In this document: positions 4,761 to 61,178 of the stretch, in pieces
Layout: each line of letters begins with the position of its first letter
Position numbering within the stretch: the first letter of the stretch is position 1
IMG/VR virus record: IMGVR_UViG_3300037755_000497
Coordinates: 32,001 to 96,000 of that record
Source of the DNA: a virus
Length of the DNA stretch: 64,000 nucleotides
Direction: 5' to 3' (one strand)
Notes under the pieces: model-generated
What the model saw: the letters and a program-made list of their open reading frames with translations, nothing else
What the model was told of the DNA's origin: nothing
Databases searched by the model: none
Program-made: the position numbers and the translations under genes

Positions 4761-5951
4761 TTATTTCTTTTTCTTGCCTGACTTTGATTTAGGCTTTTTC
4801 TTATCTTTACTCTTTTTTTCTACTTTCTTTTTGCCTTTAGATTTCTTTTTAGGCTTTTCGTCTTCATCGTCATCGTCTTCATCGTCTTCATCGTCTTCAT
4901 CGTCTTCATCGTCTTCATCGTCTTCGTCATCGTCTTCGTCTTCATCATCATCGTCATCATCATCGTCATCATCATCGTCTTCATCTTCGTCATCATCATC
5001 GTCTTCATCATCATCGTCTTCATCATCATCGTCTTCATCATCATCATCTTCGTCTTCATCATCGCTATCAACTTCAACGTCATCATCTTCGTCTTCGTCA
5101 TCGCCATCAACTTCAACGTCATCATCTTCGTCTTCGTCACTTTCAACTTTTATTTTGCTACCCTTTTTTAACTCTTTTAAAAGTTTTTCAAGTGCTTTCA
5201 TAGAAAATGTTGGTTCAAGTTTTTCTAAATCTTCCATCTGGCCAATAACTTCTTCGTCACTTTCAAATGCACCTGATTTTAAAAGTTCAGCTGATTTACC
5301 CCATTTGGTATCTTTGTATCTTCTCATGACACTTTTCTTACCATTATGGGTAATAATCATTGCTTTACCCTTATCCAAATTAAAAAACTTTTTAAGGCTT
5401 GTTGTTTCGTCATCCATTTTTTCCATGAATTCTTCAAACACATCTTTAGCAAGCCTTAGAACTTGTACACATTTATCTGTAACGTCTTTAACTTTACCCT
5501 TCTTACCTTCTTTCAGTTTTACAGCGTTAACATAGTAAGAAGTTTGTTGCATAAAAGGTTTGTGCGCTTGGCTTTCCTTCTTTGACATCTTTTTGCCACT
5601 TTCTTCTTTTTCTTTAATTTTGTTATAAATTTCAAAACCGTATTCACAAACTGGACAATCTTCATCGTAGGCCCTAGCACAAGTAACTGGTTTACCAATT
5701 AATTTATTGCCCTTTCTTTGCTGGTGAATCATAGTCATTTTATAAGGTAGATCATTCTTAGAACCGGGGTAAGGTGGTAGGGGCATAACATGCGTTTCTA
5801 CACAATCTAATTTCATGTAGTCTGTACTATTACCGCTTTTCTTCTCACGTGATTTCTTAACACCACTTTTTAATTTCTTTTCATCATAATCAAATGATAG
5901 CTTGTTACTAGCTTTCTTCTTTTCTTTTTTGTCTTTTGACTTCTTAGCCAT
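4761..5951 (-). CDS. Single-stranded DNA-binding protein (T4 gp32-like) with ~95-residue Asp/Glu tract and Lys-rich termini
   Basis: PLPP...H...TC...DCPVCE...YYVNAV pattern typical of phage gp32-like SSBs; located between UvsY-like and helicase genes; acidic tail. Confidence 0.7.
   Translation of the reverse strand: MAKKSKDKKEKKKASNKLSFDYDEKKLKSGVKKSREKKSGNSTDYMKLDCVETHVMPLPPYPGSKNDLPYKMTMIHQQRKGNKLIGKPVTCARAYDEDCPVCEYGFEIYNKIKEKEESGKKMSKKESQAHKPFMQQTSYYVNAVKLKEGKKGKVKDVTDKCVQVLRLAKDVFEEFMEKMDDETTSLKKFFNLDKGKAMIITHNGKKSVMRRYKDTKWGKSAELLKSGAFESDEEVIGQMEDLEKLEPTFSMKALEKLLKELKKGSKIKVESDEDEDDDVEVDGDDEDEDDDVEVDSDDEDEDDDDEDDDDEDDDDEDDDDDEDEDDDDDDDDDDDDEDEDDDEDDEDDEDDEDDEDDEDDDDEDEKPKKKSKGKKKVEKKSKDKKKPKSKSGKKKK
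4858..5143. repeat. Imperfect trinucleotide/nonanucleotide repeat encoding the poly-Asp/Glu tract
   Basis: Mixed TCA/TCG/TCT triplets, e.g. (TCTTCATCG)n. Confidence 0.95.
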
Positions 5952-5978
5952 TTGATACCTCTTTTTTTGTTGTTAACG

Positions 5979-6420: not shown

Positions 6421-9108
6421 TTATTTTGCCTTCTTTGCTAATTCTTCAATACTAAATTTTTCACCGTACCAGCAATCATATAAATCAAAATCTACAACTA
6501 AAGGAACTTTCCATTTCCCTTCGCCTAAAACTCTTTCCATAGTTTGATGGCAAAGTTCCTTTACAATTTTCATTTCACTTTTTGGCCCTTCACCAACAAG
6601 ACCATCGTGAATTGACAAAAGAATTCTTGATTTTAATTTTCTTTTCCTTAACTCTTTTTCTAACTTCAATTTACCCTCAACATAGATTTCATTAGCGTAA
6701 CCCTGAATTGGGAAGTTCATTGCTTGCCTATGAATAGCACCTATATCAAAATCACGCTTCTTACAGTCTTGCGAGTGTTCAGAATTGAACCATTCTGATG
6801 CAGCTGTAAATCTTCTTTTTCTACCTGTTTCTGGTAACTCAAAAAGGCCTACATCAATTGATTGGTCACATATTTCTTCACGCCAATCATGCAAGTAATG
6901 GTACTTCTCAAAGTAAATATCTATCATGTCCTGAACATCTTCAACGTCCATACTAAATTGCTGGGCTAAAGTGTTGGCATCCATACCATAGTTAAGTCCA
7001 AAACCAAGTGTTTTTGCGAAAACCCTATGTTCATCAAATATACTTGATAACAATATTTTATTTTCAATTGATTTTAATTTCTTCTTATTCTTCCTATACT
7101 TTTCTTCCCAATTTTTTGGTGGCTTGTAGCTTCTTATTTTTGCAAATTTTTCTTCTGTCATATCCTTATCAAGGAAACCCAATGTAGTGCCAAACTTAAC
7201 AACGTTCCTTGTATGTAGATCAACACCTTGTTGTATTTCTTTAATCATGGTCTTATCTTTTGATAAGAACGCACCTACCCTTAATTCCAACTGTGCAAAG
7301 TCAGCTGAAAATAGAATCCAATTCTTTTTCTTCGTTTTAAACAATTGCCTAATATTAGCATCTGGAAAAAGTGGGTTAGGCCTTGGTATATTTTGAAGGT
7401 TTGGTTCACTTGATGACATCCTTCCAGTTCTTGGCGTGTGAATATTCCAACTACCATGAATGAAACCTTTATCATCTACTGATTGGAGTAAACCGCTTTC
7501 GCCATCTTTACCATCAAGGAACGTCTTCTTCATTGTTGAAAGACTTCTATGCAATAATATCAATTTTGGTATCTTTGCGTATTTTCTTTTCCTTGCAAAT
7601 TTTTCTAAAGTATCAGCACCAACCGAGTAACCTTTTTTACCACGCTTAATTCCCATTTCTTCAAATGGGTAATCTTTAGATTCAAAGTAGGCCAGAAGTT
7701 GGTCTGGTGAATTCAGGTTTAAATCTTTTATCTTTGTTGCTTTTCTTACTTTACTTTCTATGTCAATAATTTTTGCATCAAAAAGCCTACCAATTTCTTT
7801 TAATCTTTCAACGCCAAACTTCATCCCACGGTATTCACAATCGGTCATTAATTGAGTTAATGGCATTTGCCTATCAAAAAATAATTTTTCTAGTTTTTCT
7901 TTTTTTAATTCTTTTCTAATTTTTTTCTCAAGCCTATTATTGCCACAAACGTCAATTGCAAGATATTTGCAAATCATTAAAGGTGGAATGAATTGATAGG
8001 ATTTTTTATTCTTATGTGATTTGTTTGTGTACGGCCACAGAAGTGTATCGTAAGCACCGTAGTTAATTCCCCTTAACTTCATGCAAGTATTCAAATCGTG
8101 CTTTTTGTTTTCATCAATAAGCGCATCGCCTATGATGGTATCAAAGTCAAAATTTTTATATGGAATTTTATTTTTCCTACCAAATTTTTGGTCGAACTTT
8201 CCATTATGAAGTGTCTTTTTTGCTTTAGATGCATTAACCCTTCCTACAGTAGCAAAAATTCTTTTCTTGTTCGCCTTTACAAATTTATTTATTTTCTTTG
8301 CTAACTTTCTATCTTCATCTGTCCATAGTTTGTGATTCATGTGAATATCTTCATATTCAAGCATAGGTACTATTGTTGCAAATTTTCCGTTATCAGCATA
8401 ACCAGCGTTAATTATTTTGTGCTTATAAAATTTTAATCCTGTAGTTTCGTAATCTGTGTTGAACCTTTCAACGTTTGAATAGTATTCTTCAAATTCTCTT
8501 AAATCTTTTTTTGATAACACTAATTTAAATTCTGGGTCTTTGGTTCTTCCATCATCACCAGTTTTTGCAAATTTTTTTGCTTTCTTCAAATCATTGATAA
8601 TATAATCGTCAAATTCCCATTTTGTTAAAGCTGAAACTGGTGAATAGGTTGGTATTATTTTTGTTGAAAATGTCCTTTCTTTTTTCTTATATTTGTAATC
8701 AATATCAAAATCATCAATGTGCCCCTGGAAATCACCAATGGTATTTTCATTCATTAATTGCATCAATGGTGCTTTACCCATACAAACAATTATCTTTGGC
8801 CTTACTTCCAGAATTTCTTTGGCTATATGACTTTGACAAGCTACAACGTGCTTCTTCCCAATATCACTTGGCTTGAATGCTTTACATTTAACTGCAAATG
8901 TTAAGTAAACATCATCACGATTGATTCCAGCTTTTTCTAAAAGGTAGTTTAATTTTGAACCGCCATCACCAGAAAATGGTTCACCAGTCTTGTCATCTGT
9001 AAATGAAGGGCAATCACCCACTAGCATGATACTAGCTTTAGAAGGGCCAACGCCTTCCATACAATTTGTATCACATTTATAAGCTAAATCACAATTATCG
9101 CAAAACAT
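6421..9108 (-). CDS. Family A DNA polymerase with N-terminal family-4 uracil-DNA glycosylase-like domain and 3'-5' exonuclease (SPO1-like architecture)
   Basis: CxxC...GEPFSG..G (UDG4); DYETTGL, HNGKFD, YLAID (Exo I-III); TGRMSSSEPNLQNIP, ADFAQLELR, AKTLGFGLNYG, NFPIQG, IHD. Confidence 0.96.
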   Translation of the reverse strand: MFCDNCDLAYKCDTNCMEGVGPSKASIMLVGDCPSFTDDKTGEPFSGDGGSKLNYLLEKAGINRDDVYLTFAVKCKAFKPSDIGKKHVVACQSHIAKEILEVRPKIIVCMGKAPLMQLMNENTIGDFQGHIDDFDIDYKYKKKERTFSTKIIPTYSPVSALTKWEFDDYIINDLKKAKKFAKTGDDGRTKDPEFKLVLSKKDLREFEEYYSNVERFNTDYETTGLKFYKHKIINAGYADNGKFATIVPMLEYEDIHMNHKLWTDEDRKLAKKINKFVKANKKRIFATVGRVNASKAKKTLHNGKFDQKFGRKNKIPYKNFDFDTIIGDALIDENKKHDLNTCMKLRGINYGAYDTLLWPYTNKSHKNKKSYQFIPPLMICKYLAIDVCGNNRLEKKIRKELKKEKLEKLFFDRQMPLTQLMTDCEYRGMKFGVERLKEIGRLFDAKIIDIESKVRKATKIKDLNLNSPDQLLAYFESKDYPFEEMGIKRGKKGYSVGADTLEKFARKRKYAKIPKLILLHRSLSTMKKTFLDGKDGESGLLQSVDDKGFIHGSWNIHTPRTGRMSSSEPNLQNIPRPNPLFPDANIRQLFKTKKKNWILFSADFAQLELRVGAFLSKDKTMIKEIQQGVDLHTRNVVKFGTTLGFLDKDMTEEKFAKIRSYKPPKNWEEKYRKNKKKLKSIENKILLSSIFDEHRVFAKTLGFGLNYGMDANTLAQQFSMDVEDVQDMIDIYFEKYHYLHDWREEICDQSIDVGLFELPETGRKRRFTAASEWFNSEHSQDCKKRDFDIGAIHRQAMNFPIQGYANEIYVEGKLKLEKELRKRKLKSRILLSIHDGLVGEGPKSEMKIVKELCHQTMERVLGEGKWKVPLVVDFDLYDCWYGEKFSIEELAKKAK

Positions 9109-9120
9109 AAACCTACACCA

Positions 9121-9378
9121 TCACCCTTGTTCAGAGTAGTAATTTAAACGCTCTAATGTCTCAAAGTCAACATCATCTTCTGATGATAACCTTATTTTTT
9201 TCTCGGCCTTCCTAAGTGACATTTGAACTGTTTTCTTGGCCCTTTTTAACGCATCACTTACTTTTTCTTTGTTCTTGACATTAGTTGAATAAGATATGTG
9301 TACATCCCGACTTTCGTAGTCACCAATTTGCACTTTCACACCTTCGCTATAACTAATCCTATCTAATTCATCACCCAT
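9121..9378 (-). CDS. Small hypothetical phage protein
   Basis: Tightly packed in the operon; VQIGDYESRDV resembles a common small phage protein. Confidence 0.7.
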   Translation of the reverse strand: MGDELDRISYSEGVKVQIGDYESRDVHISYSTNVKNKEKVSDALKRAKKTVQMSLRKAEKKIRLSSEDDVDFETLERLNYYSEQG

Positions 9379-11267
9379 TATCTCTTACCTTTATTTTTTA
9401 CTGACCTAGATTTCATTCCATATTTCTCTCTAAATTTTTGTACTGCTTTATCGTAAGAAAGACCCGAATCAAAATACTTTGCTTTACGGCCGTTGAAATT
9501 TAACAAGCATGAACCACCGTCACCCCATCTGGAAGTAACATGAACTTCTGTGACAGTTTCCATTTTTGATTTTGATTCTTCTGCATTGTCTTCACCGTAA
9601 TTGTCATTTGTCTTAACCCTTCTGTGCAAGATAACTAATGAATCCAAGTCTTGGTAAATTGAAGATGAATCTTTTAAATCGTTAGCTGTTGGAACTCTAT
9701 TGTTTTCAACTTTTCTTGGTTGCGCAATTAGCACAAATAATATACCAAGTTGTTCTGCTAATAATTTAAATCTTCTAGTTACTTCACCAATTTTATCTTT
9801 TACATTATCACCACGAACTAGGAAGTGTAAGTGGTCAAAACAAACTGCTTTAACACCGTAACGATGTACAACATTTGTTATCTTCTCACACATAGCTTCT
9901 AATTCAATTATCCCGTCTTCTGGGTAACCAAGGTACATAATATCCGCTGGGTTTTCAAACCTTGCTTGCCGTATTTGTAGTTCTGTTAAGTTATCGACAT
10001 GTGTAAAATCTGAAACAGCATTAGCAATAGTTTTTTCGGCCATTCTTAATTGTCTCATTTCACAACATTCAATATAAGTTGGTATCCCTTGTTTTCCCAA
10101 ATCTAAAAACCAATCAGCTACCCATGTTGTTTTACCAACTTTTGGATTCGCTGTTACTACAACAAAGTAACCAGGTTTAGAACGTGGTAAAATCCTATTT
10201 ACCCTTTCCCATCTTGTGATAAATCCAATTAGTTCATCGTCATCAGCTGTGTGCCTAAGTTTAATTAATTCCCTGTAAGCATCTGTCAACGACATTACAG
10301 ATTTTACTTGGAATTGTTTTGCTAATGTAACTAACTTCCTAAAGTCCTTTTCCGTATATCTTGGTGCTTGCTTATCTTTATCCCAAAAATACTGGTTGGC
10401 ATCTTTTAATAGTTTCTTCTCCCCTTCTTCTATTATCTCATGCTGGGGCAAAAGAACGTTGTAGCACCTGTTCATTCCAAGACGCTTGGCCATTTTTTCA
10501 GCACCATCTTGACCGTCAACATCATTATCGTAAACTAAATTAATTCTCTCAAATCTTTCAAGCCTTTCATACCATTCTGGTTGCATGGCCTTTGCACCAG
10601 TAGTAACAGCTACAACATTTTCAAAACCAGCGTTCCATAGTGCTATGGCATCAAGTTCAGCTTCACATAGGAATATTTCTTTTATTTCCTGGTTATCTAA
10701 TATTTCATCATGGAAAAGGGAAGACTTGCCACCTGTTATTCTACGCCACTTGAATTTCTTATCTTTAAACTGGATGGCCCTGAATTTTACGTTGACAAGC
10801 ACCCCATTTTCCCAGAAAGGAAGTGAAACGTATTCATACCCTTTCTTCTTCCAAGAACCTAGCATAAAATGCTTGATTGCTTTCATGGAAAAACCACGTT
10901 CATTTATTAAATAATCTTTCGCTTTCCTTTTACTATTCTCAATTTTATTAAAATATTTATGTGCCAATGTCTGGTCAATATCAGCATCTTCATGTTCATC
11001 ATTACTTGGTTTTTTAAGTTCTATATTTGCACGCTCATTGTCACCAGTTAATTTGTTAAATTCTTTCTGTAGTGACTTTATAGAACGCCCTTTAACACCG
11101 CACCCACCATTAAGACAATTCCAATAACCATAATAAGCGTGGTTGTTATTATTATTAATACCAAACCTTTGCCTATCATCATCACAGAATGGGCAATCAG
11201 CTTGCAAGTTATTACCGACTTGTAAAACCTGTAAACCTTTACCTTCTAAATATTCCCTTAAGTCCAA
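9378..11267 (-). CDS. Primase-helicase (T7 gp4/Twinkle-like: Zn finger + TOPRIM + SF4 helicase)
   Basis: CPFC..C...C Zn finger; CEAELDA and YDNDVDG (TOPRIM), KDAN; ANPKVGKT, FDHLH, AQPRK, LKDSSSIYQD. Confidence 0.93.
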   Translation of the reverse strand: MDLREYLEGKGLQVLQVGNNLQADCPFCDDDRQRFGINNNNNHAYYGYWNCLNGGCGVKGRSIKSLQKEFNKLTGDNERANIELKKPSNDEHEDADIDQTLAHKYFNKIENSKRKAKDYLINERGFSMKAIKHFMLGSWKKKGYEYVSLPFWENGVLVNVKFRAIQFKDKKFKWRRITGGKSSLFHDEILDNQEIKEIFLCEAELDAIALWNAGFENVVAVTTGAKAMQPEWYERLERFERINLVYDNDVDGQDGAEKMAKRLGMNRCYNVLLPQHEIIEEGEKKLLKDANQYFWDKDKQAPRYTEKDFRKLVTLAKQFQVKSVMSLTDAYRELIKLRHTADDDELIGFITRWERVNRILPRSKPGYFVVVTANPKVGKTTWVADWFLDLGKQGIPTYIECCEMRQLRMAEKTIANAVSDFTHVDNLTELQIRQARFENPADIMYLGYPEDGIIELEAMCEKITNVVHRYGVKAVCFDHLHFLVRGDNVKDKIGEVTRRFKLLAEQLGILFVLIAQPRKVENNRVPTANDLKDSSSIYQDLDSLVILHRRVKTNDNYGEDNAEESKSKMETVTEVHVTSRWGDGGSCLLNFNGRKAKYFDSGLSYDKAVQKFREKYGMKSRSVKNKGKR

Positions 11268-11268
11268 T

Positions 11269-12420
11269 TTATTTATCCCTTAATTCTTCTATATACTCAA
11301 TAACGAATTCTTGTATGGCCTCTGTCCTTTCAGCTTGACATTGCTGGACATATAGTGCTTCAAATAATGAAGCTGTCTTCTGTCTTATTTTTTCATACCT
11401 TTTCTTATAAAGTTTGTTATCTTGTAAAGGCGTTGATTTTTCTTCATCAGTTAATTCAATTTCTTCTAATTCTTTAGTTCTTAAATAATCTAATAGCCTA
11501 TCTTCGGCACCACTAGTAGAAAGGTGGTTTGGCTTTGGAAAAACACCATTACCTTCATTAGCGAATTTCAAACCAGTAATCTGGGCCTTCAAAAACTTTT
11601 TAATCGTAGTTTCATTATCATTTATAATGTCAACTGCTAGTAAAAAGTGTTTAAAATCTTTTCCAGTCTGGGAAGGAACTCTAAGAACTTTCTGCTTATA
11701 AAATTCTTTCCTAAGTTTCGCCCAACGCTTTGCTAATTGTAACGCTTTTTTAATTCTCTTACTTTCAACATCTGTTACTATTTTTTTCTTTTTAGATTTC
11801 TTCTTCTTTTCTACAATTTCTACTTCATAAGAAGGGTGCCCCTTATTTTTCTTTAATTCATTTTCCCTATACTTTATTAAAGCATCACTCATAACTTTAA
11901 ACTCAACAGCTGTTACATTATCACCCCTAAACTTATTGCATCTACCACAACAAGGTAGGACATTATCAATTGTATATCCTTTAAAATTATCTATCCTATC
12001 TAAACCGCACCCAGCTTCAAACCCAATTGTTTTTACGTTACAATAGTAGCAATTTTTATTAATTATTTCAGTGTAATCACTCTTTTTTAGATTAAAATTA
12101 ACACCCCTTTCATTCGCCTGTGATTTCGCTCTATTAAATCTAATTAATGGTTTCTTTGTAGCATCCGTTATACAATTTATGCATCTTCCTAAGTATCCAT
12201 CCTTCCTGCTAGCATCACTGTTAAAAAAAGATACATCTTTTATTTTTTTACAAGCCGAACATTTCTTTTCTGTAACTATTAAACTACAGGCAACAGATTT
12301 TGCCTGTTCTTTCTTGCATTGCTTACATTGGTTTTTAAAACCTGTTTTACTTTTTGTACGTTTATCAAAATTACTAATTGATTGTTTCTTTTTACAAGTA
12401 GTACATTTTTGTTTCTTCAT
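11269..12420 (-). CDS. HNH endonuclease (two Zn-ribbon repeats + HNH) fused in frame to an unknown replication-associated domain
   Basis: CTTC..CKQC, CSAC..CINC, CYYC...GLDRIDNFKGYTIDNVLPCCGRCN, followed by ~190 unrelated residues. Confidence 0.75.
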   Translation of the reverse strand: MKKQKCTTCKKKQSISNFDKRTKSKTGFKNQCKQCKKEQAKSVACSLIVTEKKCSACKKIKDVSFFNSDASRKDGYLGRCINCITDATKKPLIRFNRAKSQANERGVNFNLKKSDYTEIINKNCYYCNVKTIGFEAGCGLDRIDNFKGYTIDNVLPCCGRCNKFRGDNVTAVEFKVMSDALIKYRENELKKNKGHPSYEVEIVEKKKKSKKKKIVTDVESKRIKKALQLAKRWAKLRKEFYKQKVLRVPSQTGKDFKHFLLAVDIINDNETTIKKFLKAQITGLKFANEGNGVFPKPNHLSTSGAEDRLLDYLRTKELEEIELTDEEKSTPLQDNKLYKKRYEKIRQKTASLFEALYVQQCQAERTEAIQEFVIEYIEELRDK

Positions 12421-12560
12421 ACAATTACCCTTATTAATAAGACCCAGGATGTATTTAGCACCCTGGGAATAAACGGTGTTCCACCAGCTGTCAGAATTAA
12501 ATTTGATTTCTCAATCTTCATCCTAATTTTTGGTAGCTTTTTTTGCATTGGTCGATGCAC
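12417..12560 (-). CDS. Short ORF (47 aa, not in track); possibly the detached N-terminus of the gene invaded by the HNH
   Basis: GTG start behind a GGGGG RBS-like run; MHRPMQKKLPKIRMKIEKSNLILTAGG...; its stop overlaps the HNH ATG (ATGA). Confidence 0.5.
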   Translation of the reverse strand: MHRPMQKKLPKIRMKIEKSNLILTAGGTPFIPRVLNTSWVLLIRVIV

Positions 12561-12586: not shown

Positions 12587-13684
12587 TTATTTTTTCTTTT
12601 TACCTTTTGATTTTTTCCCTGATTTTTTATCAGACTTCTTTTTAGTGGAAACTTTTTCTTTGTTTGATTTCCCACCTAACTTCTTCATTGCCCATTTCTT
12701 CAAGTCATCTGTTTTACCAATTGAGGTTGGTTTTTCAGCACCTAGAATTGAAACTAACATTAGCAATTCAGCATATTTTAACTTATCAACACCAGATGGG
12801 TTCTTTTTAAGTTTAGCTACACTTTTTTCCATTTCGGCCCGTTTAGCTTCCCTTTCTTTCTTCTTATCATTAGCAGTTTTACCTTTTGTGTCAGTTTTTG
12901 CTTTTGATTTTTTTCCTTTCGGTGCTTCCTTTACTTTTGACTTTTTACCTTTTTTAGGCTTTTCGTCTTCGTCTTCATCTTCATCTTCGTCTTCATCTTC
13001 GTCTTCTTCGTCTTCGTCTTCATCTTCATCTTCGTCTTCTTCTTCTTCATCTTCGTCTTCGTCTTCATCTTCGTCTTCGTCTTCATCTTCGTCTTCGTCT
13101 TCATCTTCGTCTTCGTCTTCATCTTCGTCTTCGTCTTCGTCTTCGTCTTCTTCGTCTTCTTCGTCTTCTTCTTCGTCTTCTTCTTCGTCTTCTTCTTCGT
13201 CTTCTTCGTCTTCGTCTTCTTCTTCGTCTTCTTCGTCTTCTTCATCAGAATCATCTTCATCAGAATCATTTTCATCTTCATCAGAATCATCATCTTCTTC
13301 GTCTTCTTCGTCTTCTTCGTCTTCTTCGTCTTCATCACCATCTTCTTCATCATCTTCTAAAGATTCTTTACAATATGGACAATGATCTTCACCAACTAAA
13401 ATATCAGAACCACAAACTGGGCAACCACCAAAGCTTCCAGAATCTTGGCCTTCGGCCGCTGCTAATCTTACAGTTTCAATTTGGTCAGCGAATAACCTGG
13501 AAGCAACAAGTGTGTTTGTAACACCAGCTAACTCTGTTAAGAAATGCATTAAGTTTAAATCGTCACCAGCTGGCACTTCAATTTTCTGTGCTTCACAAAA
13601 CTTTTGAAGCGCACCAAATAATTTTTCATAGTTTGGTTTTGATTTCTTTTCTTTTTTTGATTTTGTTTTTGACTTCTTAGCCAT
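12587..13684 (-). CDS. Zn-ribbon protein with ~130-residue Asp/Glu tract, basic segments and C-terminal HeH/SAP/Rho-N-like motif; candidate histone chaperone
   Basis: CPVC...CPYC; acidic tract; VDKLKYAELLMLVSILG...KTDDLKKW; strong RBS (GAGGT). The ORF is secure; function is inference. Confidence 0.6.
   Translation of the reverse strand: MAKKSKTKSKKEKKSKPNYEKLFGALQKFCEAQKIEVPAGDDLNLMHFLTELAGVTNTLVASRLFADQIETVRLAAAEGQDSGSFGGCPVCGSDILVGEDHCPYCKESLEDDEEDGDEDEEDEEDEEDEEDDDSDEDENDSDEDDSDEEDEEDEEEDEDEEDEEEDEEEDEEEDEEDEEDEDEDEDEDEDEDEDEDEDEDEDEDEDEDEDEDEEEEDEDEDEDEDEEDEDEDEDEDEDEDEKPKKGKKSKVKEAPKGKKSKAKTDTKGKTANDKKKEREAKRAEMEKSVAKLKKNPSGVDKLKYAELLMLVSILGAEKPTSIGKTDDLKKWAMKKLGGKSNKEKVSTKKKSDKKSGKKSKGKKKK
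12964..13357. repeat. Imperfect (TCTTCG/TCTTCA)n repeat encoding the Glu/Asp tract
   Basis: Directly visible; includes 18-bp units TCTTCATCTTCGTCTTCG. Confidence 0.95.
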
Positions 13685-13723
13685 TTGATACCTCTTTTTT
13701 TTATTTGTTAAAAATCCCTGTTA

Positions 13724-13915
13724 TTAAAAATCTGTAGCTTTAACAGTTTTCCTATTATTATTAATACATCTTTGCTGGGCATCAGCTATCATAAGGTAGA
13801 CTTTTTCATTTAGCTTTTCTAATGCTTCACTTGAAACATTAAGACCAGTTGACTTAAGTGCTTCTTTTGTTTTTGAACCTATTAACAACATTTCCTTTCC
13901 TTGCTTACTTCCCAT
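13724..13915 (-). CDS. Bacterial-type histone-fold protein (Bd0055/HBb-like singlet)
   Basis: LLIGSKTKEALKSTGLNVSSEALEKLNEKVYLMIADAQQRCINNNRKTVKATDF shows the histone-fold pattern with the RKTVxxxD signature and a short alpha3. Confidence 0.88.
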   Translation of the reverse strand: MGSKQGKEMLLIGSKTKEALKSTGLNVSSEALEKLNEKVYLMIADAQQRCINNNRKTVKATDF

Positions 13916-15458
13916 TTTTATTTCTCCTTTGAATTACGCTTACGCTACTGTAAGTGTTTAGAATGGTTTTACCTTTTCTTCTTAGCTTCTCACTTTTTGT
14001 ATCCCATAGAAAATCGAAAGTTGGTTTACTTTTTTTACCAAATAATTTCCTTAATACATCATCGTAGTCACGTTCTACCCTACCCTTCATCTGGTTAAAG
14101 TCTTGGATGTTTATAGGGATGGTGCATATACCATGGTCAAAAGTTTTTATACTTAAACCAGCAATACCTTTTCTTGTTGTTATTACAACATCAAATTGTT
14201 TTTTAATTCCCAGATTTATAATGTCAAAGAATTCTTTGTCAGCACTATATGCCAGCATAAATTCTTTCCAATCTTCTTTCCAATCTTCTTTATCGTTAAT
14301 TTCTTGTTTGCTAACGTTACCAACCAACAACTTCACACGCAAATTTTTATTTAATAATTTTTCTCTTAAATACAATCCTTGCCATCTTCTTTCAACAAAA
14401 ATAATTACTATTTTTTTCTTCTTGACTTTTTGAAGCGTCCTGTTGATTACAATTTTGTTCCTTTTTTTATCTCTGGCCATATTGTAAAGAAGTTCAGTGT
14501 TGTTACTTGTATCGTCATAATCATCACCATCGTAATCAGTTGGCACTAAATTTATTTTTGCTGGTAGCCTAGAACCTAAATCTGTATCAGGTATGATGTG
14601 AATTAATTTTCCAAACAAATCATAAATTAAATATTCTTTCCCATCTTTTCTTTTTTCATCAGCACTAAGTCCTATTCTAAATTTTGCTGGACATAAATCT
14701 AAACAACCATTGAATGAAGCCGCCCCATATCTTTGAACTTCATCAGCTATTAATATTCCACACACTGGGTAATATAAATCTTGGTTTGATTTGTTTCTTA
14801 AACTTTGAACCATACAAACATTTATTTTACCAACTTTCCTATTCCCAGGATAAGGTAAATCAGGGAAAGATTCTGTCCACGCTTTTTTTGTTGCGAATAC
14901 GCCACCAGCACCACCTATGTCTTCTAATTTTAAATTTAATAAATCATTTCTTAGTGCTTCTTTAATCCATTGTATCTGGTGAATCTTTTCCCATAGTACA
15001 ACTAGACCAACTTGTTCACTTCTTGCAATTGCTTCTAAACCTATTACAGATTTACCACAAGAACATGGGCCGCGAACAATTCCCTGTTTCTTTTTTAAAA
15101 TTATTTTTACAGCTTTCTCTTGGTCTTTTCTTAGGATTGTTTTTGAATCATATTCCGTTTTTTTTGTTACACGTTTAAATTTTATAACAACATCATGGTT
15201 TCGTTTTCTTAGTTCTTTTTTTATTCTTGGTAAGCAACCACGTGTGAATCTTATAACTTTTTTATCATCACTTATTTTAAAACTTTCGTAAATTTCAGGT
15301 TCATTGTCTGTTGGAAGCCCCATTCTTTCCATACGGATGTACATTGGGTTTATGTGTTTACATAATTTTTTTAGATTAAGGATTGCCCTTCTATCATCTT
15401 TTAAAAGTTTTTTGTAACTCAAACTTGCGTGTGAATCAACCTTGATTTTTACCTTCAA
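13905..15458 (-). CDS. SF2 helicase (UvsW/XPB-like)
   Basis: LRKDQEKAV, GPCSCGKS, DEVQ, GLSA..R.DG, QMKGRVER. Confidence 0.88.
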   Translation of the reverse strand: MKVKIKVDSHASLSYKKLLKDDRRAILNLKKLCKHINPMYIRMERMGLPTDNEPEIYESFKISDDKKVIRFTRGCLPRIKKELRKRNHDVVIKFKRVTKKTEYDSKTILRKDQEKAVKIILKKKQGIVRGPCSCGKSVIGLEAIARSEQVGLVVLWEKIHQIQWIKEALRNDLLNLKLEDIGGAGGVFATKKAWTESFPDLPYPGNRKVGKINVCMVQSLRNKSNQDLYYPVCGILIADEVQRYGAASFNGCLDLCPAKFRIGLSADEKRKDGKEYLIYDLFGKLIHIIPDTDLGSRLPAKINLVPTDYDGDDYDDTSNNTELLYNMARDKKRNKIVINRTLQKVKKKKIVIIFVERRWQGLYLREKLLNKNLRVKLLVGNVSKQEINDKEDWKEDWKEFMLAYSADKEFFDIINLGIKKQFDVVITTRKGIAGLSIKTFDHGICTIPINIQDFNQMKGRVERDYDDVLRKLFGKKSKPTFDFLWDTKSEKLRRKGKTILNTYSSVSVIQRRNKNGK

Positions 15459-15481: not shown

Positions 15482-15772
15482 TTAAACACCGAATAATTCC
15501 TTGAAAGGCAAATCAGTGTTCAACAAAATAAAATTTCCTTCGGGTTGTAGCAAGTCATCGGCCGCAAGTAAAACCTTTTCAAGTTTTTCTGCACCTGTAC
15601 CACTTAGCATAATTTTTTCATTGCGCTGTAGCAGTAAGGCCAAGTTATTCGTGAATTCACGAATTTTAGGGTGAATAATTTCAATTTCTTCAACTGCATC
15701 GACCATGCTTCTTCTTCCCATTTTTTTTCTGTGTTTAGTAATCATCAAGAAAATTTTCTTGGTTGTCAACAA
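15482..15772 (-). CDS. Hypothetical protein
   Basis: Co-oriented ORF in the operon; start uncertain. Confidence 0.55.
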   Translation of the reverse strand: MLTTKKIFLMITKHRKKMGRRSMVDAVEEIEIIHPKIREFTNNLALLLQRNEKIMLSGTGAEKLEKVLLAADDLLQPEGNFILLNTDLPFKELFGV

Positions 15773-31379: not shown

Positions 31380-33233
31380 CTACAGGTCAAAACCTGGTGC
31401 TATTGTTCGTACATCAGTAGGTATTACCATCATTTCTATTTCGTCAATCTTCATAATAGTTGACGCATTAGTTTTCATCCCAAATTTCCCTTTTGTAAAG
31501 GAAGCATCTATAATTTCATGCTGTTTGTTTGAATCAACATAGGCCTTTATTACAGTGTCACCATTGGCCGCGCTTAGATCGGTTATAACAGTGAATATAT
31601 AACTTGCTTGTGGAACTATGTCTTCTGTTACTGGGGCACTAATTTGGGTGGTTACACCACCTACAACCTTGTATAAAGAAGTTTCCCTATTGACAGTATC
31701 AATTCTAAATTCGTAATAGTTATTTATGTCCTGGAAGAAGAATAAAACCGAGAATACGCCCCCAGTTGACGAAGCATTTTCTGCTTTAACTTGAAGCACA
31801 ATGTCTTGAAATTCAGTGTCACCAAAAACCGATGTATTTACTATGGTGCTTGGTGCTAATTCCATTTGAAATTCACTATTGACATTAGCTGAACCTTGTG
31901 CAACGTTAAATTGCCCGATGCCATCTACAAAATCATCAAAAAATCTAATAAATATTACATTAATTCTTTCTGATACTGGACGCATAAGATTTAAGATTCT
32001 TTGGATTAGAACCTTGTTTAAATTCCCAGTTCCATCATCAACAATTCTAATATCAGTTTTAAATTCATCTAGCTGTTCAATTTGATATTCAATGAAGCCA
32101 CTTAGTGGCGGTGTCAATGTTGCTGAATCAACATTATATACTGAATTAAGTGCAAGCCTAAAATTATCAACATCAACTTTAACAGTATTTATTCCAACGC
32201 CTTCACCACCAATAAACATTTTTGCGAAATTTGTTACATCACCCATTATACCTAAAGAAGATTTGGCCGTTGATTCAGTTCCATTTACATAAAGCCTTAT
32301 ACCATCATTTGCTCGGTCAACCATCAGAGCAATATGCCTAACAATATTATTGTCTAAATCAAATGACGTTATTAAAGAATCAGTTATAGTTGTTATGCCA
32401 TCGCTTACAGTGTAGGAAACAGTTTTAGCTGCTTTATCAATTTCAATTTTGAAACCTTTACCTGAACCATCCATCTTATGTACTAAAGTTTTATTCGCTT
32501 CGCTTATTGAAGACCTAATAAATAACTCAACTGTAAAGTCCTGACTTAAATCATAGTCATCACTATTATTAATCCTTACCACACCACCTTGTAGGGCCAG
32601 GTGTTTTGTTGAACCGTTCGGGAACCCTGAATTTGGGTTAGTATAGAATTGATATGGTGAAACACCAACAGCTTCATTAACTAATATCGACCTATCAAGA
32701 AAATTATTTTCAAAAGTGTATAAAGCAACAACATTATTTGAAGTGTCTTCACTACCTTCAACACCTGGAACAGATATTAGCCAAGAATCTTCACCCAGCT
32801 GTTCTTCACCGAATGCTTTTTCACCGATAATAAATCTAAAATCGAACCAGTTAAAAATTCTTGCTGTCTTACCTACAAATAACCTAACAATATTTGCATA
32901 ACCTGGTTCAGTTCCTTTTTGTTTCCATAGAGCAACGGCCAGTGAAATTAGCTTTCTTAAATCATTTTCCGAAAGGTCTTGTGTAATATTATTCAAGTCA
33001 TTAGTGAAACCAACAATATCTTTTAAATATATTAAAAGGTCAGCACGAATTCTTGCTGGGTCATTAAGTGTTGAAAGCGTTTTAATTCTCGCTTGCATTT
33101 TCTCAAATTCAATTTGCTTACCGATAAGGAATCTTTGAAGAAAATCATTACCTTCACGTTTATCAATATCCCTAATTGGTTTATGGATGAATTTGTAAAT
33201 ATCATACTGAAAATTAGGGTCTATTTTAGGCAT
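31380..33233 (-). CDS. Baseplate wedge/tail protein I-like with LamG (ConA-like) domains
   Basis: DPARIRADLL..L...LWKQKGT; DFTVELF..HIAL..LYVNG..DNFRL. Confidence 0.75.
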   Translation of the reverse strand: MPKIDPNFQYDIYKFIHKPIRDIDKREGNDFLQRFLIGKQIEFEKMQARIKTLSTLNDPARIRADLLIYLKDIVGFTNDLNNITQDLSENDLRKLISLAVALWKQKGTEPGYANIVRLFVGKTARIFNWFDFRFIIGEKAFGEEQLGEDSWLISVPGVEGSEDTSNNVVALYTFENNFLDRSILVNEAVGVSPYQFYTNPNSGFPNGSTKHLALQGGVVRINNSDDYDLSQDFTVELFIRSSISEANKTLVHKMDGSGKGFKIEIDKAAKTVSYTVSDGITTITDSLITSFDLDNNIVRHIALMVDRANDGIRLYVNGTESTAKSSLGIMGDVTNFAKMFIGGEGVGINTVKVDVDNFRLALNSVYNVDSATLTPPLSGFIEYQIEQLDEFKTDIRIVDDGTGNLNKVLIQRILNLMRPVSERINVIFIRFFDDFVDGIGQFNVAQGSANVNSEFQMELAPSTIVNTSVFGDTEFQDIVLQVKAENASSTGGVFSVLFFFQDINNYYEFRIDTVNRETSLYKVVGGVTTQISAPVTEDIVPQASYIFTVITDLSAANGDTVIKAYVDSNKQHEIIDASFTKGKFGMKTNASTIMKIDEIEMMVIPTDVRTIAPGFDL

Positions 33234-59828: not shown

Positions 59829-61178
59829 TTATTTTCTCTTTAAGTTACGCTGTTTCCTTTGGATATTTTTTGAAATATCAGAAAGGCCAACAAGATTACT
59901 AAAAACAGATTCACCTTTTTCAACTTCATCATCAGCATCAGATTCTTCTTCATCATCATCGCCTAGATTGAAACTAGCACCCCCTGATTGCTCGATGTCT
60001 TCAAGTTTGGTGTTTATTTTTTCCAGTTTTGAATCAATGTCTTCCTTAAAGCTGGAAGAAGAAGTTTTTAATTCTTCTTTAATTTCTTCCTTAAAGCTAT
60101 CAAGTGACTTTTGAAGTTCGGTCATGGCACTTTTTGTCACGCCTTTTCTTGAATCATTGTTTAAAACAGATTCAATAAGTTCGGACAATTTACCTGCGAT
60201 TTCACGCAATACGGCCATTCTTTTACCAGAAATTTTTGCACCAGCCTTTTCAACATCTTGACGAACAGACTTGATACTATCATTAATGCTTGTAAAAATT
60301 GATTCTTGTTCTTTAGCTTTTTCGCTGTCACCTTCTTCTTTTCTTTCGGCCATCATTGCCATAAGCATGTCGATGGATGCAAAAGTAAGAGATACAACTT
60401 CATTCAATGCACCAGCTGCAAAATCATGTAGCTCTAAACTTCTTTCAAGCATACCCGAAACATCTTCAAGATTTTTTTCTAGCTTAACAACTCTTTTAGA
60501 AAGTTCATCATTATCCAATTCTGAATCATCTTCACTTTCATCTTCTTCACTGGTTGCAGTACCAGCTGCTTTATTTTTTCCTGATTCGTCTTCATCTTCT
60601 GAATCTTCATCATCAGCGTCTTCTTCATCGCCTTCTTCTGATTCGTCTTCATCTTCTGAATCTTCATCATCTTTTTTGTCTTTATCTTTGCCTTCATCAT
60701 CAGCTTCTTCTTCTGATTCGTCTTCATCTTCTGAATCTTCATCAGCTTTTGTTACTTCGTGAAGTTTTACATCTGGGTAAGATTCTTTGAATTTTTCAAT
60801 GTCAAAACTAAATGTACAACATTGATCGAAAACACCTTTTTCAAAATGTTCTAAAGCACATCCAATACAAACGCTATTCCTTAGTCCAGCACCCATTGTT
60901 TCAGCTTCCACTTCTTTAGTTATCCCACAAAAGTGACAGTGTTCACCACACTTGTCTGAATCAGCTTTCGCAATTTTTTCAGACCACTTAGGCATAGCTT
61001 TAATAAGTGGTAATTTTTTTACTTTGGCCACTTTTGCCCCCTTTTTATTGTTTTTATTAACACTTTTTGTTATATAGAATGATTCACCAATAGCCGCCAT
61101 ATCAACAGCTGATACTTCATCAACTTCTAAATCAAAGATTTCCTTTACACCCTTCTGAACTTTTTTTGTCTTAGCCAT
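59829..61178 (-). CDS. Capsid scaffold-like protein with acidic repeats and a Cys cluster
   Basis: Between protease and MCP; coiled-coil; SEDEDES x3; N-terminal DLEVDEVSAVDMAA. Confidence 0.7.
   Translation of the reverse strand: MAKTKKVQKGVKEIFDLEVDEVSAVDMAAIGESFYITKSVNKNNKKGAKVAKVKKLPLIKAMPKWSEKIAKADSDKCGEHCHFCGITKEVEAETMGAGLRNSVCIGCALEHFEKGVFDQCCTFSFDIEKFKESYPDVKLHEVTKADEDSEDEDESEEEADDEGKDKDKKDDEDSEDEDESEEGDEEDADDEDSEDEDESGKNKAAGTATSEEDESEDDSELDNDELSKRVVKLEKNLEDVSGMLERSLELHDFAAGALNEVVSLTFASIDMLMAMMAERKEEGDSEKAKEQESIFTSINDSIKSVRQDVEKAGAKISGKRMAVLREIAGKLSELIESVLNNDSRKGVTKSAMTELQKSLDSFKEEIKEELKTSSSSFKEDIDSKLEKINTKLEDIEQSGGASFNLGDDDEEESDADDEVEKGESVFSNLVGLSDISKNIQRKQRNLKRK

Follow-up and report, generated by a model that had tools for sequence, protein, structure and literature searches.

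A putatively DNA-anchored polyacidic protein family in the replication modules of Bdellovibrionota phages, encoded beside a bacterial-type histone in one genome

Acidic proteins that act on nucleoid proteins are a known element of the phage repertoire. T7 gp5.5 and T4 Arn act on H-NS, and long acidic tracts are found in eukaryotic histone chaperones and histone binders such as nucleoplasmin/NPM1, nucleolin, NAP1, prothymosin-alpha and the tails of FACT. Bacterial histones have been recognised only recently, and we know of nothing reported on factors that load, remove or counteract them. In the Bacillus phage SPO1, Gp46 acts on HU as an acidic DNA mimic (PMC8892312). Gp44 of the same phage, an inhibitor of RNA polymerase, joins a DNA-binding anchor to a disordered acidic DNA-mimic domain without basic residues, and has been proposed to dock on DNA and capture the DNA-binding machine (PMC8208478). 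In Bdellovibrio, histones rank among the major chromatin proteins (PMC10627809), the Leptospira histone HLp by itself decondenses the nucleoid of E. coli (PMC12701072), and bacterial-like histones have been reported earlier in Caudoviricetes (bioRxiv 10.1101/2024.12.06.627149). Here we analysed a window of 64,000 nucleotides, positions 32,001 to 96,000 of the IMG/VR virus record IMGVR_UViG_3300037755_000497 (G000; 108,875 bp, CheckV completeness 76%), in which a histone of 63 amino acids (aa) is encoded next to a polyacidic protein of 365 aa; all positions given without a locus name are those of the window. Judged by its sequence, the acidic protein is a member of a family, so far undescribed, that occurs in Bdellovibrionota phages and prophages. 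Tentatively, and with somewhat less than even confidence, we interpret it as a flexible polyanion tethered to DNA, or a DNA mimic, that would belong to the phage replication module and have the histone of Bdellovibrionota hosts as its likeliest client.

The acidic gene (12587..13684, stop codon included) lies on the minus strand, which carries nearly all genes of the window, and is the founding member of the family here. An earlier note, made from the sequence alone, had described the product as a basic tail, a helical domain, a CxxC/CxxC ribbon, a tract of ~130 D/E residues, a basic linker, a HeH/SAP/Rho-N-like motif and a basic tail; charge and an AlphaFold2 model run with a 15-row alignment agree with this layout, and the open reading frames (ORFs) and the 39 bp between them were also found as the note had them. 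A K-rich N-terminal tail (residues 1-17, net charge +8; 13634..13684, minus strand as for all segments of the protein) precedes the N domain (residues 18-109; 13358..13633), which according to AlphaFold2 and the homologues consists of a helix (19-32), a long helix (45-78) and a zinc ribbon. The disordered acidic tract follows (residues 110-244; 12953..13357), recognised from composition and from the model, then a K-rich linker (residues 245-270, net +10; 12875..12952), the C domain (residues 271-338; 12671..12874), composed of a long helix and a SAP/HeH-like helix-extended-helix that is the predicted DNA anchor, and a K-rich C-terminal tail (residues 339-365, net +13; 12590..12670). In the tract, 127 of the 135 residues (94%) are D or E (71 E, 56 D) and two are K, giving a net charge of -125. 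It is written in GAA, GAC and GAT codons, and an imperfect hexanucleotide array of the (GAC GAA)n type underlies it at 12962-13357; the poly-Ser and K/T-rich ORFs that overlie it were dismissed as shadow frames. The model gives a predicted local distance difference test (pLDDT) score of ~66-80 for the N domain and 84-95 for the C domain (270-336), with residues 112-265 disordered.

The assignment of the C domain is based on its predicted fold. The best matches were the SAP domain of Ku70 (Z score 5.0, root-mean-square deviation (rmsd) 2.3 Å, 52 aligned residues) and Rho-N (Z score 5.0, rmsd 2.5 Å, 47 aligned residues), followed by the SAP domain of E1B-AP5 (Z score 4.6) and by Tho1, PIAS1, SLX4, FAN1 and the LEM domain of emerin; these matches span whole small domains at Z scores of 4-5, a range in which common helical arrangements also score. 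The leads obtained from the ESM Atlas were Rho_N, SAP and Ish1. In sequence, the C domain of the window protein matched none of the Pfam models SAP, Rho_N and HeH, and one homologue reached SAP_new25 at E 0.063. Concerning the N domain, C88xxC91-x10-C102xxC105 (13370..13423) presents the two CxxC knuckles on beta hairpins that characterise zinc ribbons: the model places short strands at 85-87 and 94-96, the four cysteines are invariant in the family alignment A3, and seven of eight family members gave weak matches, below the cut-off, to Pfam Zn_ribbon_3/DZR. Foldseek searches of PDB and BFVD and VIA-align revealed no known fold for the helical part, the sole convincing matches being zinc ribbons, and zinc ribbons were also the only neighbours of the N domain in the ESM Atlas. 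No Pfam domain of nucleoplasmin, NAP1 or another histone chaperone was found in the whole protein at E<=0.1; the fold searches, which alone would not decide the matter, list none either. Matches of the whole protein to PDB sequences (ORC1, ARP8, NELF-E) were rejected as low-complexity D/E matches, and an NCBIfam lipase match was rejected as compositional.

No model of Pfam, PHROGs, NCBIfam or PADLOC matches the acidic protein. Used as query in an exhaustive HMMER search among 1.84 billion representatives, the N domain retrieved 18 proteins at E<=0.001, about 12 of which cover it, and in the full-length homologues (285-401 aa) the whole architecture is repeated, including the well-conserved C domain. 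Altogether ~15-16 members share the layout; they come from a 106-kb phage, a provirus, Bdellovibrionales prophages and metagenome sequences. Their tract is disordered, ~100-230 residues long and hypervariable in both length and composition. The metagenome homologues P0046 and P0043 are identical as far as the tract, beyond which one of them continues in a shifted, M/T/I-rich frame; tracts of this family thus appear to attract frameshift errors or slippage. The viral-contig scan for the family revealed two carriers, the complete phage genome G001 and the provirus G002, and a pattern scan of the genomes of 185,579 species yielded three confirmed loci only, all of them prophages in metagenome-assembled genomes (MAGs) of Bdellovibrionales/Pseudobdellovibrionaceae. 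Neither the N domain nor the C domain gave a match in word-indexed protein searches, and viral-contig scans with the cysteine-less subfamily and with the C-domain alignment likewise gave none. Among 301 sampled genomes of the phylum the family was present in a single one (G006), and it should therefore be regarded as phage-borne and not as a host gene. A further match of the family profile, in the genome G174, proved to be a FYDLN_acid protein and not a member.

Two phage types that are unrelated to each other have the gene within or at the head of replication/recombination operons. The large phages carry it after the helicase gene and before those for primase-helicase and DNA polymerase; the temperate phages carry downstream of it the genes for a Sak4-like annealase, a RecE-like exonuclease, a replication initiator, a primase and a DnaB-like helicase. 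On the minus strand of the window the order is a 96-aa ORF, a superfamily 2 (SF2) helicase, the 63-aa ORF, the 365-aa ORF, an HNH-domain protein, a primase-helicase and a DNA polymerase. The helicase (ResIII/DEAD-like, 517 aa; 13905..15458, minus strand) has an orthologue in G001 that directly precedes the acidic gene. The 96-aa protein (15482..15772, minus strand) is a companion of the acidic gene that is kept in all three phage types, as a small protein of 68-96 aa with the motif PxGxWILVNG..TL..L; as a conserved neighbour it was located at 7301-7588 of L086 and at 9364-9570 of L087 and L093. It accompanies the acidic gene more constantly than the histone does. No known family was found for it, and a profile search returned no PDB relative.

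A second protein with a giant acidic tract is encoded in the window (4761..5951, minus strand, 396 aa). It comprises a K-rich N-terminal tail, a domain with a CxxC motif that resembles single-stranded DNA-binding proteins (SSB), ~110 D/E residues and a K-rich tail; as a possible phage SSB of the T4 gp32 type it matches phrog_224 at E 9.4e-5 over residues 65-328 and no Pfam model, and a counterpart is encoded at the start of the G001 contig. The same 35 nt stand at the head of both acidic-tract genes (13667-13701 and 5932-5966), with an A-run, an AGAGG ribosome-binding site, the ATG and codons that spell AKKSK. The Logan assembly graph branches because of this repeat. A loose end at 13701 was considered as a strain variant and rejected, being this repeat.

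Regarding the 63-aa protein (13724..13915, minus strand), HLp (PDB 9QT0) matches residues 4-63 at E 9.3e-11, whereas Bd0055/HBb (8CMP, 8FVX) match more weakly (E ~0.05) and the Pfam model CBFD_NFYB_HMF remains below the cut-off (E 0.046). In an alignment of 21 histone relatives (A1) the residues S14, K15, K17, K21, R49, N53, R55, T57 and D62 are invariant; in HLp they form the contacts with DNA, the interface of the tetramer and the R55-D62 RD clamp (PMC12701072). The protein also has the other marks of the HLp type, namely a length of 63 aa, a truncated alpha-3, the RD clamp R55-D62 and R49/N53/R55 at the tetramer interface. From the HLp match and the conserved HLp residues, we assign it to the face-to-face alpha-3 bacterial histones of HLp type; tetramer formation and DNA wrapping would be expected of a histone of this type. 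The nearest relatives are 72-86% identical; those in bacterial chromosomal loci stand at 77-86%, the sole named one being a protein of an Oligoflexia MAG (phylum Bdellovibrionota, 79% identity), and an origin of the phage gene from a host is thus likely on sequence grounds. The closest bacterial histones (L007, L010, L006) were observed in a conserved locus of DUF374, histone, Crp/cNMP-binding regulator, P-type ATPase and cbb3 oxidase CcoNO. Further close relatives (P0002, P0006, P0013, P0025, P0030) are encoded on contigs of 94-155 kb. A histone profile run on the viral records retrieved the window histone and two other viral histones that are just 34-40% identical to it; a viral-contig scan with a single histone sequence gave no match. 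The histone tree had no starred branch and resolved neither the donor nor whether the histones of the window and of L026 go back to one capture.

The adjacency of the two genes is what had led the earlier note to propose a dedicated chaperone system, i.e., a co-evolved pair in which the acidic protein serves the histone encoded by the phage. The two genes lie on the same strand, separated by a spacer of 39 bp (13685..13723) with an AGAGG ribosome-binding site; a search for terminator-like sites between them found none, for which reason they are likely co-transcribed, and the histone stands exactly upstream of the acidic gene. Its start overlaps the 3' end of the helicase gene by 11 nt, so that the coupling of helicase and histone is, by its arrangement, translational. 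The only other G000-like fragment (L026, 24-1725), a metagenome contig that stops within the histone gene, encodes a helicase with 49% identity to that of the window and, next to it, a histone whose start overlaps the helicase by 32 nt; the helicase-histone coupling is therefore kept in a divergent relative. However, the co-occurrence on which such a system would depend was not found. The phage genome G001 (complete, 106,178 bp with terminal repeats, ~55 ORFs colinear with the phage of the window at 30-79% identity) has its acidic gene in the same slot, between SF2 helicase and primase-helicase and with later genes as in the window, and there helicase and acidic gene overlap by 4 bp; the histone profile retrieved nothing at E<=10 from G001 or from the provirus G002. 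Three Bdellovibrionales prophages likewise carry the acidic family without a histone of their own; the histone profile was run in two of the host MAGs, G006 and G007 (loci L091 and L092), which have their own histones on other contigs. Conversely, the acidic family was not found in the histone-bearing viral records G003, G004 and G005, the last of which is complete, and within 8 kb of 84 histone loci neither acidic homologues nor long D/E tracts were seen. Because G001 and the other histone-less carriers keep the acidic gene, the histone is, on this comparison of gene contents, a stable lineage-specific insert between helicase and acidic gene and not an obligate partner; by the same comparison the acidic gene is older than the phage histone and independent of phage-borne histones. 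A dedicated chaperone of the phage histone is thus very unlikely. What stands of the earlier proposal, a histone chaperone or DNA mimic at the fork, is the reading as DNA mimic or polyanion in a replication operon, which is reasonable, while the role dedicated to the phage histone is largely refuted by the distribution.

Other readings dispense with histones altogether. The protein could be an accessory factor or organiser of the replisome that binds DNA by its SAP/HeH domain and lysine tails, the tract being an intramolecular DNA mimic that autoinhibits this DNA binding and attracts partners, or the whole being a block-charged polyampholyte that condenses the replication compartment; acidic tails of T4 gp32, T7 gp2.5, bacterial SSB and HMGB1 are precedents. 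We consider this somewhat unlikely, although it suits the invariable position of the gene inside or at the head of replication/recombination modules, its retention in a histone-less phage, the alternation of acidic and basic blocks in P0044 and P0045, and the SSB-like protein and its G001 counterpart with their similar giant tract and K-rich tail. A tract of 100-230 residues nevertheless exceeds every known SSB-type tail by far, the searches revealed no homologue among known replisome factors, and the confinement of the cellular occurrences to prophages of Bdellovibrionota is left unexplained. An anti-host or anti-defence DNA mimic aimed at an end-processing nuclease, a restriction enzyme or RNA polymerase has its own precedents in lambda Gam and T7 gp5.9, which act on nucleases, and in Ocr and ArdA, which act on restriction. 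In the temperate phages the gene lies directly upstream of the annealase/exonuclease pair, and lambda carries gam at a comparable position; the early-gene position and the design of an anchor with a disordered acidic domain, as in Gp44, point the same way. Most characterised mimics are however small and folded, no homology to a known anti-defence or DNA-mimic family was detected, and in the large phages the gene lies between helicase and primase and not among the earliest genes; we consider this alternative unlikely. Finally, it is scarcely credible that the tract is an error of assembly or low complexity and the ORF not a real gene. Such an error would account for the frameshifted homologue (P0046 vs P0043) and for the Logan assembly of the likely source run X1, which breaks at the tract; this independent assembly breaks here because of the 35-nt repeat together with the tract. 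The bins of X1 left uncovered (12970-13653) reflect a gap in the contigs and do not speak for absence, and in sequencing runs other than X1 only ~0.1 of the words matched, probably those of the repeat. The length of the tract rests on the assembly of the IMG/VR record, as the X1 contigs do not span it. The N and C domains, on the other hand, stand in frame on both sides of the variable tract in ~15 independent sequences from different samples; the reading frame is thus real and, on this evidence, the gene genuine.

Returning to the DNA-tethered polyanion as the reading that we prefer, the SAP/HeH domain and the lysine tails would hold the protein on DNA, and the N domain would serve for docking or for oligomerisation. 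Once tethered, the polyanion, with a net charge of ~-125, would mimic DNA in a flexible form and, close to the phage replisome, compete with it for proteins of basic charge that bind DNA. The likeliest client would be the host histone and, in this phage, also the phage-borne copy, so that the protein would be a histone sink or chaperone clearing histones from phage DNA or buffering them there. We favour the host histone because it is the main chromatin protein in these bacteria, because phages commonly use acidic mimics against nucleoid proteins, and because one lineage has put a histone gene beside the acidic gene; since the known hosts are histone-bearing Bdellovibrionota, a histone-directed role is still conceivable after the loss of the pairing argument. 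The more specific proposition, that a DNA-anchored polyanion binds bacterial histones where the phage replisome works and evicts or buffers them there, and that the hyper-acidic tail of the SSB-like protein serves the same purpose, appears possible but doubtful.

Several observations weigh against this interpretation. The adjacency of histone and acidic gene occurs in one genome only, and the acidic family occurs without phage histones as these do without it. The phage histone is only moderately basic (net charge +4 per monomer, isoelectric point 9.5). The ribbon cysteines are lost in the subfamily P0038/P0043/P0045, and the ribbon is thus dispensable there. A second replication protein with the same type of tract, the SSB-like protein, fits a general replisome or acidic-tail role equally well. 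Moreover, the family may seem confined to Bdellovibrionota only because it is young and narrow and the scans were limited by their pattern, and we infer both the hosts of G000 and G001 and the binding of histones by the acidic protein.

Concerning the remainder of the module, a terminator-like hairpin with a weak T tail lies downstream of the acidic gene (12443..12467, minus strand), followed on the same strand by the HNH-domain protein (383 aa; 11269..12420), the primase-helicase (9378-11267) and the DNA polymerase (6421-9108). In the HNH-domain protein an N-terminal HNH/endonuclease VII-like region is fused to a C-terminal domain that in G001 is a stand-alone protein of 210 aa (33% identity). 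The G001 helicase (L086, 7644-9992) has 782 aa as against 517 aa in the window, and its insert resembles an intein/homing endonuclease, being Cys-led with an HNH-like motif. At 59829-61178 (minus strand), adjoining structural genes, a protein of 449 aa combines a CxxC pair with a stretch of ~80 residues that is moderately acidic and with a long C-terminal half resembling a coiled coil; it is possibly of scaffold type, and its counterpart in G001 is 33% identical. Blastn and tblastn searches against 50,697 GenBank phage records gave no match for the region or for the histone.

Were a histone client confirmed, bacteria and their phages would have yielded their first histone chaperone or anti-histone factor, and its likeness to the acidic motifs with which eukaryotic replisome proteins handle histones would be a case of convergence. 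The family joins a predicted DNA anchor to one of the longest and purest acidic tracts in a prokaryotic virus, has so far been found only in phages of histone-bearing hosts, and offers a testable candidate factor. Our analysis also corrects an inference drawn from gene neighbourhood, the histone being a lineage-specific insert.

With respect to known systems, the acidic protein resembles the eukaryotic histone chaperones in its long D/E tract between basic nucleic-acid-binding segments and in the presumed electrostatic competition with DNA, but the folded domains differ and the likeness is one of analogy only. To the phage inhibitors of nucleoid proteins, which are small folded proteins without homology to it, it is linked by acidic charge. 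In the bacterial FYDLN_acid proteins (PF09538), too, a zinc ribbon precedes a long acidic tail of D/E residues; the window protein lacks the FYDLN motif, has in addition the helical N domain and the SAP/HeH C domain, and did not match PF09538 at E<=0.1, while the positive control L107 scored 5.2e-15. This control (1501-2016 of L107, genome G174, Bdellovibrionota) is a chromosomal FYDLN_acid protein with a zinc ribbon and ~100 D/E residues, an analogous but unrelated cellular design. The histone, in turn, shares with HLp of Leptospira perolatii (9QT0-9QT2) its length, the tetramer residues, the RD clamp and the DNA-contact residues S14/K15/K17/K21/T57, and differs in that its gene belongs to a phage, where it lies within a replication operon and is translationally coupled to a helicase. 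The statement of the earlier note that no phage equivalent of the acidic protein had been described went too far, given that SPO1 Gp44, the nearest design on record, is such an anchored acidic DNA-mimic protein (PMC8208478). The window protein, with 127 D/E and 2 K in its tract, shares this class of design, an anchor with a disordered acidic domain; Gp44 was likened to it by description and not compared by sequence, and PHROGs gave no match. The acidic domain of Gp44 has ~67 residues and 57% D/E as against 135 residues and 94% in the window protein, which carries a C-terminal SAP/HeH-like anchor and an extra N-terminal zinc-ribbon domain. Even without a histone client, therefore, the family would extend the flexible DNA-mimic design of SPO1 Gp44 to a new and conserved family of the replication module.

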